Shown here piece after piece: positions 6,810 to 9,971 of a stretch of 57,281 bases of DNA (the first letter of the stretch is position 1; the number at the start of each line of letters is the position of its first letter). Source of the stretch: Minisyncoccota bacterium (lineage in GTDB: Bacteria; Patescibacteriota; Minisyncoccia; Minisyncoccales; JAQTVQ01). Both the position numbers and the translations under genes were made by a program. The stretch covers positions 1 through 57,281 of the forward strand of contig JBAZHV010000001.1 of NCBI GenBank assembly GCA_041652155.1, in the 5' to 3' direction. A model generated the notes under the pieces. That model made no database searches. It had not been told where the DNA came from and saw only the letters and a program-made list of their open reading frames with translations.

Positions 6810-8231
6810 TTAGACATCGTAGTAAAGCATGAATTCGGCAGAGCTTGGCCTGGTTCTTATGACGTCATACTCGGCAGTTCTCTTGTAGTCTATCCAAGTA
6901 TTTATCAGGCCCTTGGTAAAGACTCCGTCTCTGGTCAAAAATTCATTGTCTTTTTCCAAAGCGGCCAAACTTTTATCCAATGAGTCCGGGACCTGGGGAA
7001 GTTTATCACTGGCGCCCATTTTGTAAATGTTCCCGTCGATCGGGTCCAGAGGTTTGATCTTGTTCTTTATTCCGTCCAAACCGGCTAACAACATTGCGGA
7101 GAATACGAGATAAGGATTGGCCGAAGGATCCGGCGGGCGGAACTCGATCCTTTTGGATGCAGGACTTGTGGAATAGTTTGGCACCCTGATAGCCGCGGAA
7201 CGGTTTCTGTTGGAATAGACAAGATTCACCGGCGCTTCAAAACCCGGAACCAGTCTTTTGTAAGAATTGGTGGTCGGAGCGGCAAAAGCCAGAATGGCCG
7301 GCGCGTGCTTCAAAAGCCCGCCGATAAAATAGACGGCCAGCTCGCTTAGATTGGCGTAGCCCGACGCGCTGTGGAATAAAGGCGTTCCGTTCTTCCAGAG
7401 AGAAACGTGGACGTGCATGCCCGAACCGTTGTCTCCCCAGATCGGTTTAGGCATAAAAGTAGCGGTTTTGCCGTTGCGAAAAGCGACATTCTTGACCGCG
7501 TATTTGAATTTCATCACATTGTCGGCGATCTTTTTGAGAGTATCGTATTTGATATCTATCTCGGCCTGGCCTCCGGTGGAAACTTCGTGATGCTCTTTCT
7601 CGACTTCTATCCCAAGCTTTTCCATTTCAAAAACCATCTCGCGCCTGATATCCGCAAGCTGATCGGCCGGCGGAACTGGAAAGTATCCTTCTTTATTTCT
7701 TATCTTATAGCCCGAGCCGTTGCCGGGAATGTCTTTATCTTCTTTGGCGTTCCAATTGGCTTCAACGGATCTTATCTCGTGAAAAGAAAAGTTTTGATCG
7801 GCGCCGAAATTTACTTTATCAAAAATGAAAAATTCAGCTTCCGGCCCGAAGTAAGCTTTGTCGGCCACCCCGCTTTTAGTCAGCAGCTCTTCGGCTTTCC
7901 GGGCGACAAATCTCGGATCGTTCTCAAAAGGCGTTTTTTTGGCTCCAGGTTCATAGATATCGCAGATGAAGCTGCCCAGCGGAAACTTGGAAAAAGGATC
8001 GACAGCGAAAGTTTCCAGATCGGGGACCAAAAGCATATCGCTTTCCTGTATTTCTTTGAATCCGCGGATGCTGGAACCGTCAAAACCGAGACCTTCTTCG
8101 AGAACCTTTTTGTCCAAGGCGGAGAGGGGAACGGTAAAGTGCTGCCAAGTTCCCGGCAGATCGCAAAACTTAAAATCAACTAATTTTATGCCGTGTTTTT
8201 CACAAGTCTCAATTATTTCTTCGTAAACCAT
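6810..8231 (-). CDS. glnA: glutamine synthetase type I
   Basis: Conserved GS blocks FDGSSI, YFGPEAEFF, KPIWGDNGSGMHVHVSLW, NSYKRLVPGFEAP and SNRNRSAAIRVP. Start moved to the ATG at 8231 (MVYEEI...), since the upstream part of the ORF covers leader structure. Confidence 0.9.
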   Translation of the reverse strand: MVYEEIIETCEKHGIKLVDFKFCDLPGTWQHFTVPLSALDKKVLEEGLGFDGSSIRGFKEIQESDMLLVPDLETFAVDPFSKFPLGSFICDIYEPGAKKTPFENDPRFVARKAEELLTKSGVADKAYFGPEAEFFIFDKVNFGADQNFSFHEIRSVEANWNAKEDKDIPGNGSGYKIRNKEGYFPVPPADQLADIRREMVFEMEKLGIEVEKEHHEVSTGGQAEIDIKYDTLKKIADNVMKFKYAVKNVAFRNGKTATFMPKPIWGDNGSGMHVHVSLWKNGTPLFHSASGYANLSELAVYFIGGLLKHAPAILAFAAPTTNSYKRLVPGFEAPVNLVYSNRNRSAAIRVPNYSTSPASKRIEFRPPDPSANPYLVFSAMLLAGLDGIKNKIKPLDPIDGNIYKMGASDKLPQVPDSLDKSLAALEKDNEFLTRDGVFTKGLINTWIDYKRTAEYDVIRTRPSSAEFMLYYDV

Positions 8232-8302
8232 AATTTGGAATGTCGATATTCGAAAGTCGAGGGCCGTAACGACATTCGACCTTCTACGCTCGACACTCAA
8301 TT

Positions 8303-8338
8303 AAAAAACAAAACTCCTAGGCCGTAAAAGGCTAGGAG
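8303..8338 (-). terminator. intrinsic terminator in the glnA leader (candidate attenuator)
   Basis: Minus-strand sense reads CTCCTAGCC TTTTAC GGCCTAGGAG TTTTGTTTTTT. It lies 72 nt upstream of the glnA ATG and downstream of the GAF-ANTAR gene. Confidence 0.7.
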
Positions 8339-8375
8339 ACATCAATGTCTATTTCCCAAACTGCTTTGTTTGGAA
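8337..8375 (-). promoter_or_regulatory. candidate ANTAR-binding dual hexaloop hairpins
   Basis: Minus-strand sense. P1 is TTCCAAAC AAAGCA GTTTGGGAA (8353-8375) and P2 is AGAC ATTGAT GTCT (8337-8350). Both loops are 6 nt with A at position 1 and G at position 4. The P2 3-prime arm overlaps the terminator 5-prime arm by 2 nt. Confidence 0.4.
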
Positions 8376-8428
8376 CACGAATCATCATCGAACCGTGCTG
8401 ATGAACTAACTATACTGCATGGAAGCGC

Positions 8429-8554
8429 AAAGTGTAAAGCGAAAAACTAAAAATAACAGTTTAAAGCTTAAACTTGCTTGTTTTCTCCCGGTAATCGGCA
8501 GAAAGATCATTTTAAATTTTACGCTGTTATTTTTAGTTTTTCGCTTTGCGTTTT
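8429..8554. repeat. 31-bp inverted repeat with a 64-nt loop immediately after the ANTAR gene stop
   Basis: 8429-8459 pairs with 8524-8554 (core CGAAAAACTAAAAATAACAG / CTGTTATTTTTAGTTTTTCG). The three non-Watson-Crick positions are G-U on the plus-strand RNA and A-C on the minus. Confidence 0.6.
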
Positions 8555-9266
8555 ACACTCTCTTGAAGTCGCTCGAAATTATTACTGCGCTGGCGACTTC
8601 TTTGATGGATATTCTTTTGTCCATGCTTTTTTTATGCAAAAGCTTGTGGGCTTCTTCTTCGGAAATGTTAAGGTCTTTCATTAAAATGCCCTTGGCTTTC
8701 TCGATCAGTTTGCGGGTTTCCAAAGCTTCTTTTAAAGCTTCTTTCTCGCTGAAAAGCATGGCGTTTTCGATGGCTCCGCCGGTTGCCTGGGCGACAAGTT
8801 CGAACAGGGCTATTTCCGTCTCCGAATATTTGCGCGGCTTTGAATGCTGGACGTTTATCACGCCCAGAACTTTATCGCGATAGATGATCGGAACGGAAAG
8901 GATTCCTTCGAATTTGTCTTCGGGCAAACTGTTAAAAAATTTAAAGCGTTCGTCCTCGTAGGCTTTTTTGGCGATTGCTACGGTTTTTTGTTTTCGGGCC
9001 ACCCAGCCCGTGATCCCTTCGCCGATCTTCATTTTGATGGCACCGATCTCCAGCGGTTTGGGGTTTAAAGAAGCTCTCAAGGTAAGATCTTCGCCGTCGG
9101 TCAAGTATAAAAAGCAAGAATCCGCTTTTGTCACAGAGCTGACTGTTTTTACTATGCGGCTCAATACTTCTTTCAGATCAAGATTATAACTGATGGTCTG
9201 GATTATCTGGCGCAGAAGATCAAGTTCGTTCTCTTTTTTCAATTTGCCGTTTTTCTTTTTTTCCAT
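8553..9266 (-). CDS. GAF-ANTAR RNA-binding antitermination regulator
   Basis: N-terminal GAF (DSCFLYL...GEGITGWVA...LSVPII...LGVINV) and C-terminal ANTAR (ETRKLIEKAKGILMKDLNISEEEAHKLLHKKSMDKRISIKEVA). Confidence 0.85.
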   Translation of the reverse strand: MEKKKNGKLKKENELDLLRQIIQTISYNLDLKEVLSRIVKTVSSVTKADSCFLYLTDGEDLTLRASLNPKPLEIGAIKMKIGEGITGWVARKQKTVAIAKKAYEDERFKFFNSLPEDKFEGILSVPIIYRDKVLGVINVQHSKPRKYSETEIALFELVAQATGGAIENAMLFSEKEALKEALETRKLIEKAKGILMKDLNISEEEAHKLLHKKSMDKRISIKEVASAVIISSDFKRV

Positions 9267-9326
9267 ATTTTTTGAAAGTTATTATTCCTAAATTTTAAGC
9301 CGATCGCAGGCAATAAGCTGCAAATG

Positions 9327-9971
9327 TTATTTGATCGGAAGTTGGGGATCTTTCCCGGACATTATATCCGCCACCAAATATCCTACGCCGAAAGGATATT
9401 CGTAAGAAAGAATTTCCGGCCGGTATTCGATCTTGGCGGCGGCAAGCGCTCCCAAAAGGAAAGAGAAAGAGCGCAGTCCGCATTCGCCGGCGTCAGGATA
9501 TGTATCGTTAAGCTGTAAAATTTTGTCGGTTTCTTTTTTGGCCAAAAATTCCCGCAGGTCTTTATCGAACATCGGGCCTTCCGGGTGGAAACCGTAAGGG
9601 CCTTCTTCTTTCAAACGGTGGGAAGTGTCTCCCGAAGCTATCAGAGCGACTTTTTTGAATTCCGATTCAAGATGGTCTTCGGCATATATCCGCTGGCCTT
9701 CTTGAAAATGAATTTTGGGAGATTCCGTCCCTGTCAAATATGTTTTTATCGGCCCTTGAAAATTGGAAGCTAAAAAATGAAGAGGAACGTTGAATCCCCA
9801 GTCGGCGTGGGGAGAAGAAATGATTATAAGGTCCGGCCTTATCTCCTTAATTTTTTGCCCCAATTTTTCCAGCGCTTCGATCGTGCTCTTCAATAAAGCG
9901 CGATCCGCCTCGGAACCGACCGAAGGCAGCAATATCGGAGGGTGAGGGGAAAAGCAAGCAAAAGTTATCAT
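9327..9971 (-). CDS. class III extradiol-dioxygenase-fold (LigB/Memo-like) protein, AmmeMemoRadiSam partner type
   Basis: N-terminal FACFSPHPPILLP, IIISSPH and SGDTSHRL are motifs of the LigB/Memo fold. This domain is often fused or adjacent to AMMECR1. Confidence 0.55.
   Translation of the reverse strand: MITFACFSPHPPILLPSVGSEADRALLKSTIEALEKLGQKIKEIRPDLIIISSPHADWGFNVPLHFLASNFQGPIKTYLTGTESPKIHFQEGQRIYAEDHLESEFKKVALIASGDTSHRLKEEGPYGFHPEGPMFDKDLREFLAKKETDKILQLNDTYPDAGECGLRSFSFLLGALAAAKIEYRPEILSYEYPFGVGYLVADIMSGKDPQLPIK

Follow-up and report, generated by a model that had tools for sequence, protein, structure and literature searches.

The glnA gene of a Minisyncoccota bacterium, encoding glutamine synthetase, lies directly downstream of a gene for a GAF-ANTAR protein on the minus strand of a 57,281-nt stretch of DNA, and the locus raises the question whether the spacer between the two genes contains an RNA switch through which the first gene controls the second. 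In the initial annotation, which was made from the sequence alone, control of glnA by ligand-gated transcription antitermination was tentatively proposed, on the basis of an intrinsic terminator preceded by two hexaloop hairpins. The mechanism of a dual hexaloop combined with a terminator is known for EutV, NasR and AmiR (PMC3369931, PMC8934654). Comparison with homologous loci supported the proposal by a conserved promoter, by the conservation of the second hairpin (P2) and the terminator, by a covariance model (R1) and by the recurrence of the motif across phyla. The glnA leader is probably an ANTAR-type, protein-dependent transcription attenuator that is gated by the neighbouring GAF-ANTAR protein.

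In the following, the window is the whole 57,281-nt stretch and G000 is the genome to which it belongs (876 kb, 37 contigs, 98% complete). Neighbouring loci and proteins almost identical to its own carry the label Candidatus Paceibacterota (Patescibacteria). C-numbers denote contigs of G000 and L-numbers denote loci with GAF-ANTAR homologues, of which L002 to L005 belong to four genomes of the same genus.

Organization of the glnA leader

By direct reading of the open reading frames and by Pfam calls, the order on the minus strand was GAF-ANTAR gene (9266-8553), spacer (8552-8232) and glnA (8231-6810). This order had been recognized before, whereas the length of the leader is 321 nt and not 320 nt. 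The ATG of glnA at 8231 lines up with the start codons in relatives. The sequences and coordinates of two hexaloop hairpins and of the terminator were found to be exact as initially annotated, and the loops AAAGCA and AUUGAU indeed carry A at position 1 (A1) and G at position 4 (G4). A third hexaloop hairpin, the promoter and two long palindromes had not been noticed and were added (Table 1). In 5′ to 3′ direction, the three hexaloop hairpins are referred to as P1up, Pmid (the P1 of the initial annotation) and P2.

P1up is an 8-bp helix with one U-U mismatch, and its loop GAUGAU (G1, G4) is closed by a C-G pair; the loop of Pmid is likewise closed by a C-G pair. The terminator stem (8338-8314) comprises 9 bp with one bulged C and the loop UUUUAC, and it is followed by the U-tract UUUUGUUUUUU (8313-8303); a simple terminator scan missed it only because of the bulged C. 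P2 and the terminator share the two nucleotides C8338 and U8337, so that both the canonical terminator and the 2-nt overlap of the initial annotation were borne out by reading and by folds. The spacing is 2-6 nt between Pmid and P2, depending on the outer pairs formed, 0-2 nt between P1up and Pmid, and approximately 25 nt between P1up and P2.

A TTGAC-N17/18-TATAAT sequence was aligned in the four congeners at the position of the promoter found in the window, and such a sequence is also located 5′ of the motif in L014, L015, L016, L018, L067 and L069. No promoter-like site was found by promoter scan and congener alignment from 8303 to 8232, the stretch that separates the terminator from the glnA ATG. 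Since the promoter is located 3′ of the ANTAR stop codon and 5′ of the hairpins, the terminator is best read as an attenuator within the leader and not as the end of the regulator transcript, and the glnA leader has, by scan and alignment, its own predicted promoter.

Table 1. Features of the glnA locus; positions are those of the window
Feature	Position	Strand	Basis and remarks
GAF-ANTAR regulator gene, 237 aa	8553..9266	(-)	Pfam GAF_2 residues 29-167, ANTAR residues 176-229
Palindromic element hpA	8436..8547	(-)	Fold; 24-bp perfect outer stem, directly 3′ of the regulator stop codon
glnA promoter, sigma-70-like, TTTACA-18 nt-TATAGT (predicted)	8409..8438	(-)	Promoter scan, 10/12 matches
P1up hexaloop hairpin, CACGGUUC-GAUGAU-GAUUCGUG	8376..8397	(-)	Covariation among congeners
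Pmid hexaloop hairpin, UUCCAAAC-AAAGCA-GUUUGGGAA	8353..8375	(-)	Reading and fold, -8.6 kcal/mol
P2 hexaloop hairpin, AGAC-AUUGAU-GUCU	8337..8350	(-)	Core kept in all congeners; -2.4 kcal/mol alone
Intrinsic terminator	8303..8338	(-)	Fold, -12.9 kcal/mol; conserved in 5/5 congeners
Palindromic element hpB, TCGA-type units, between terminator and glnA start	8238..8298	(-)	Fold
glnA, type I glutamine synthetase, regulated gene	6810..8231	(-)	Pfam Gln-synt_N and Gln-synt_C; TIGR00653, 631 bits

Conservation of the hairpins within the genus

The regulator-glnA arrangement is kept in the four other genomes of the genus, in which the regulator is 82-86% identical. Each of the five aligned spacers contains the promoter, P1up, P2 and the terminator, and P2 is invariant in all congeners as GAC-A[AU]UGAU-GUC. 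In a pair count on the five-genome alignment, 96.6% of the cells were paired as compared to about 40% with partners slid; the structure was drawn on a sequence alignment after inspection of the sequences, and the comparison with the slid-partner control is therefore somewhat favoured. Compensatory pairs were found in P1up (five) and in the terminator (two). Three further near-genus leaders agree with the pattern of the genus.

The initial annotation was right that Pmid is a hairpin, but Pmid is a lineage-specific extra and not the conserved P1. The leaders of the window, L002, L004/L012 and L105 have it, but L003, L005, L103 and L104 lack it, as does every more distant homologue; the ancestral P1 is P1up, located 5′ of Pmid. 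Where Pmid is present, its core AC-A[AG]AGCA-GU is kept, and covariation is seen in its lower stem (CC..GG against GG..CC). In L002, L004 and L105 the hairpin reads GGAC...GUCU(CC) and resembles P2, a likeness from which an origin of Pmid by duplication of P2 is suspected.

Conservation of loop positions 1 and 4 had been proposed as a check of the antitermination hypothesis. G4 did not vary among the hexaloop hairpins that were identified in the examined homologous leaders, and A1 was retained in P2 of all congeners and of most distant homologues, whereas position 1 of the upstream P1 is either A or G. The P1up loop reads AAUGGC, AUUGAC or AACGAU in the congeners and GAUGAU in the window. In L104 and L013, whose leaders have two hairpins, the sole P1 again has the loop GAUGAU, so that G1 is tolerated in the family; P1 loops with G1 were found in L104, L013, L095 and L069.

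GAF-ANTAR homologues and the hexaloop motif in other phyla

With one genome scanned per species, GAF-ANTAR homologues were recovered at 80 loci, which represent many phyla. The glnA gene is located directly 3′ of the regulator gene in Paceibacterota (L012, L014), Anaerolineales (L016, L037), Gottesmanbacteria (L018), another member of the Patescibacteria (L019), a metagenome-assembled genome (MAG) labelled Gammaproteobacteria (L015) and Omnitrophota (L070). Most of these glnA-adjacent leaders contain a promoter, a P1 hexaloop hairpin, a (A)GAC-N3GN2-GUC(UCC) hairpin and an overlapping terminator, and the P2 sequence GAC-N3GN2-GUC(UCC) is kept across phyla. The leader of L037 has variant loops and no evident overlap, and no motif was found in the leader of L070. 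In L013, L093 and L094 the distance between regulator and glnA is 0.8-2.4 kb, and the motif is located directly 5′ of glnA and not behind the regulator gene. In other phyla, the same motif or a variant of it (e.g. GGC-AAUGAA-GCC) was found 3′ of the regulator and 5′ of other nitrogen-related genes, namely amtB (L026, L028), nadE for a glutamine-dependent NAD synthase (L031, L035, L061), GOGAT-like genes (L052, L089) and the glutamate dehydrogenase gene gdhA (L067, L069, L079).

The 2-nt overlap and the 4-bp stem of P2 had initially been given as reasons for caution. Both features are real, yet both are normal in the clade, and some distant homologues share them: P2 and terminator overlap by 2-3 nt in L013, L015, L093 and L094, by 3 nt in L016 and by 5 nt in L018 and L028. 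A short overlap characterises the family and is not a fault of a single locus. The linker between the hairpins is 3-14 nt long in two-hairpin relatives, versus 5-12 nt in the eut leaders. For EutV, an inter-hairpin linker of about 5-12 nt is needed; induction suffers at 3 or 14 nt, and an extension by 20 nt abolishes antitermination.

Three variants of the arrangement were observed besides. In L031, L035 and L061, from Syntrophorhabdus and another MAG, the motif and a terminator are located approximately 60-90 nt 3′ of the regulator and 5′ of nadE; in the passages of the ANTAR literature used for comparison, nadE is not named as an ANTAR target class. In a more distant member of the Paceibacterota (L095:3214-4220), the regulator is followed by a promoter, a dual hexaloop and a terminator, and then, within a 1-kb stretch without a called gene, by a cysteine-rich open reading frame of about 70 aa (MNSCPFSGNCLTG...) and not by glnA. 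In the glnA leader of the Patescibacteria locus L019 (3850-3910), a GAC-UACGAG-GUC hairpin is located about 30 nt before the start codon without an evident terminator, and the GAGG of a possible ribosome-binding site is part of its loop and 3′ arm. This suggests that glnA is controlled there at the level of translation and not of transcription.

Covariance model and pattern searches

The covariance model R1 was built from 10 instances from other genera and phyla, none of them from the genus of the window. Since the MAFFT alignment of the natural P1-to-P2 stretches split the 3′ arm of P1 where linkers were short, the instances were trimmed to a 3-nt linker, by which long linkers are penalised. 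With filters off, the best match in the window was 8372-8335, comprising Pmid and P2, with 15.9 bits (E 0.034), and the next reached 8.8 bits. The covariance-model scan proposed in the initial annotation thus placed the site first in the window and also in the whole genome. Over 88 loci, all 21 matches at E<1 were on the strand of the regulator, and 12 of these were within 200 nt of its stop codon. The second genome match of R1 (C30:1279-1311) was rejected; it consists of a Shine-Dalgarno sequence and start codon after a terminator, and its P2 stem is not formed.

A loose pattern of a dual hexaloop followed by a T-run occurred 52 times in the 876-kb genome, so that the bare pattern is weak evidence by itself; only the glnA leader looked real. 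An Rfam scan of 7800-9400 with E up to 10 gave no riboswitch, no glnA RNA motif and no match at the hairpins. Plant-miRNA matches of Rfam on the long palindrome were discarded as spurious.

The GAF-ANTAR regulator

The gene upstream of the leader is the only ANTAR gene in G000. Its ANTAR domain was matched over the complete profile (positions 1-54 of 54, Pfam PF03861) with 77.3 bits at a cut-off of 27.3, and it matches EutV (6wsh, E 1.3e-10) and also Rv1626 and NasR. In the EutV-RNA complex, A1 is without direct contact to EutV and G4 stacks on Tyr164, and the protein contacts the three closing pairs of the hairpin at their backbone (Walshe et al., PMC8934654). The RNA-contact residues Tyr164, Arg168, Met172, Asn173, Arg175 and Arg177 of EutV were compared with the regulator. 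Met172, the Met plug, and Arg175 correspond to Met215 and Arg218, which are both invariant in 12 family members, while Arg168, Asn173 and Arg177 are replaced by His, Asp and Ser, respectively.

For the GAF domain, the best PDB matches among named proteins were the GAF domain of PtsP (3ci6, E 7e-22) and 3trc, and an unnamed GAF protein (3e0y) scored higher (E 1.8e-24). The best NCBIfam match was PRK11061, positions 4-159 (PtsP/EI-Ntr), followed by the GAF domain of NifA. EI-Ntr's GAF domain binds glutamine, by which autophosphorylation is inhibited (PMC4848567). The PtsP-like GAF domain together with the nitrogen-related target genes points to nitrogen status, in the form of glutamine and/or 2-oxoglutarate, as the most likely signal.

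Proposed mechanism

We infer that the GAF-ANTAR protein binds the leader RNA and that this binding prevents termination. Transcription would start at the conserved promoter at about position 8402 and would by default stop at the intrinsic terminator (8338-8303): P2 alone folds with -2.4 kcal/mol versus -12.9 kcal/mol for the terminator, which makes termination the expected default, as the ANTAR model requires. Once in the state that binds RNA, the regulator, presumably a dimer, would clamp two adjacent hexaloop hairpins with its ANTAR domains, one of them being P2. Clamping would keep G8340-U8337 in the P2 stem, the terminator would lose its basal pairs C8338-G8314 and U8337-A8315, which abut the U-tract, and RNA polymerase would then read into glnA. 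Basal stem pairs matter for intrinsic termination. Glutamine would switch RNA binding off, so that glutamine synthetase would be made only when glutamine is scarce; this is the physiologically sensible sign of the response.

Several observations weigh against this interpretation. P2 and a terminator truncated to 7 bp are able to coexist at a total of -11.6 versus -12.9 kcal/mol, so that antitermination would have to rely on the loss of the basal pairs and on the steric effect of the bound protein. The stem of P2 has just 3-4 bp and overlaps the terminator by only 2 nt, while in eutP P2 is embedded in the terminator (PMC8934654). P1up has G and not A at loop position 1 and a mismatch in its stem. 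Tyr164 of EutV, which stacks on G4, corresponds to His207 (codon 8644-8646); among 12 aligned proteins this position is Tyr in nine, Phe in one and His in two, namely this regulator and its closest relative P0005. As R1 is small, its genome-wide E-value for the site is only 0.5, and the covariation figure of its P1 hairpins is partly circular since these were chosen for pairing. Finally, the hpB palindrome would be part of readthrough transcripts and may affect them.

A wider reading, in which the locus is a minimal nitrogen homeostat, is conceivable but doubtful. In a genome that yielded no PII, AmtB, GOGAT or GDH, the PtsP-like GAF domain would sense glutamine directly and gate one terminator before the sole nitrogen-assimilation gene found, and the three-hexaloop array, which only part of the genus has, would offer two overlapping registers, maybe occupied by cooperative dimers, with a steeper response as the result.

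Alternative explanations

The initial annotation had itself raised the alternative that the terminator is the end of the ANTAR transcript and that a separate glnA promoter is located downstream. With a terminator between two genes of the same strand, which might end the regulator transcript or insulate the genes, and with AT-rich DNA 3′ of it in the congeners that could hide a weak promoter, the hairpins might be incidental. What was found instead is a conserved -35/-10 pair, which every congener and also several phyla have 5′ of the hairpins, and nothing promoter-like from 8303 to 8232. Moreover, P2 and G4 are conserved far beyond the needs of a plain terminator, and the motif stands directly 5′ of its target where the regulator gene is 0.8-2.4 kb away (L013, L093, L094), which makes this explanation very improbable. 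Only marginally more credit is given to a protein-independent attenuator or unrecognised riboswitch, for example one sensing glutamine, with the GAF-ANTAR protein acting elsewhere. Glutamine-binding RNAs do precede nitrogen genes in cyanobacteria. On the other hand, no Rfam family was matched at E up to 10 apart from the spurious miRNA hits, and the conserved parts of the leader are two to three small hexaloops with variable stems, the signature of ANTAR targets and not of a ligand pocket. The motif also co-occurs with GAF-ANTAR genes across phyla, and the single ANTAR protein of the genome has no other convincing target in it.

It is likewise very unlikely that glnA is mainly controlled by translation or RNA stability through hpB, with the ANTAR motif being secondary. 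The hpB element ends 7 nt before the ATG, is very stable in the fold of the full leader and spans the stretch immediately 5′ of the start codon, and ANTAR RNAs acting on translation have been described in actinobacteria. However, the four other genus genomes lack hpB, which is a member of a dispersed repeat family and hence a recent insertion, and it is the hairpins and the terminator that are conserved. A different kind of alternative accepts the switch but confines it to Pmid and P2, with P1up being vestigial at about 25 nt from P2 through an inserted hairpin. The spacing of 2-6 nt between Pmid and P2, set against the linker limits of EutV, the selection of this pair by R1, and the G1 and U-U mismatch of P1up speak for it, and we regard it as possible, although not the favoured version. 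Against it, all three-hairpin genomes (window, L002, L004 and L105) retain P1up as an unimpaired hexaloop hairpin of 8 bp that has G4 and is closed by a C-G pair, GAUGAU serves as the only P1 loop in L104 and L013, and binding of more than one dimer to a three-site array is equally possible.

Genome context and flanking palindromes

No PII protein was found in G000 with the Pfam P-II profile, while a control search recovered PII in 13 of 14 reference genomes. Homologues of amtB, GOGAT-like genes, GDH and nadE were not detected in the genome by tblastn with the proteins of the other loci. The regulator and a close glnA co-occur in exactly 5 of the 41 genomes of the order, which are the five of the genus, and a search of 400 other Patescibacteria genomes, taken as a sample, gave no match to the regulator. 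This pattern of co-occurrence and absence suggests that the pair acts as one unit and is rare in the Candidate Phyla Radiation (CPR).

Together, hpA and hpB occupy most of the spacer. They represent two repeat families, the members of which are long intergenic palindromes dispersed in the genome and fold into hairpins of 20-35 bp; one family consists of units of the AAAGCG/GTAAAG type and the other of short units ending in TCGA (ATGTCGA, GGGTCGA and similar). The glnA leader is flanked by a single member of either family, and further copies in G000 are located at C11:22186-22313, C19:1575-1765, C32:2851-3038, C3:28864-28960 and C11:21059-21143. Palindromes related to hpA were found on C11, C19 and C32, and C4 matched in part; the congeners have long hairpins of unrelated sequence at the position of hpA, which may be the 3′ end or an insulator of the regulator transcript. 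A similar insert to hpB is present in L105, and related copies are located on C3, C7, C9, C11 and C13; these, together with its absence from the other genus genomes, indicate a recent insertion and not a conserved regulator. Independently of the palindromes, glnA is without a recognisable Shine-Dalgarno sequence in all five genus genomes, and the 15-20 nt 5′ of its ATG are A/U-rich (8232-8245 in the window).

Comparison with known systems

The closest characterized parallel is EutV/EutW of Enterococcus faecalis, where the leaders of eutP, eutG, eutS and eutA likewise contain two tandem A1/G4 hexaloops, a short linker and a terminator that shares nucleotides with P2 (PMC3369931, PMC8934654). 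The Met plug and the Arg contact, and a protein-dependent antiterminator that is weaker than the terminator, are also common to both. The locus described here differs by its GAF sensor in place of a phospho-receiver, by glnA as the target, by a 2-nt overlap instead of an embedded P2, by three hexaloops in a row, by His in place of the G4-stacking Tyr and by a P1 that tolerates G1.

ANTAR targets before glutamine synthetase genes were already listed in 2012, with 25 mentions in Table S2 of PMC3369931, including one glnA with an adjacent ANTAR gene; a commentary on predicted ANTAR targets is available (PMC3369936). Among the listed cases, Alkaliphilus metalliredigens (Amet_3386/3385) and Caldicellulosiruptor likewise have a dual hexaloop and an overlapping terminator before glutamine synthetase, and in some instances an ANTAR gene is located next to it; these two are from Firmicutes, whereas here a GAF-ANTAR protein is encoded in a CPR genome. 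Experimental tests of those predicted glutamine synthetase targets were not found in the searched literature.

In the GnfK/GnfR system of Geobacter sulfurreducens (PMC2995071), an ANTAR regulator likewise overrides leader terminators of nitrogen genes, and the GnfR site CAGGCAANGGCGCC holds a GGC-AANGGC-GCC hexaloop, similar to GGCGC-AAUGGC-GCGCC in the P1up of congeners. GnfR differs in being a response regulator that is activated by a kinase and in its regulon of nif, glnK and amtB, as compared to the single glnA here. PtsP (EI-Ntr; 3ci6, 3trc; PMC4848567) provides the best named match of the sensor, and its GAF domain binds glutamine and reports nitrogen status; its output is PEP-dependent autophosphorylation, whereas that of the regulator is predicted to be RNA binding. 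No characterised GAF-ANTAR protein was found in the searchable literature: Ramesh et al. 2012 had none, and in a review of 2025 GAF-ANTAR is still mentioned as no more than a domain architecture.

The predicted mechanism itself is not new and, judged from its sequence elements, is a well-conserved and conventional on/off switch for nitrogen. The locus represents a very simple test case, in which a single regulator, RNA site and target gene come together with a plausible ligand, and it would allow the coupling of a small-molecule sensor to ANTAR antitermination to be tested directly. It is located in the CPR, where gene regulation is almost unstudied, and provides an experimental entry point to GAF-ANTAR signalling as well as to gene regulation in this lineage. 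The pattern of the motif across phyla points to GAF-ANTAR proteins as widespread nitrogen regulators in uncultured phyla.

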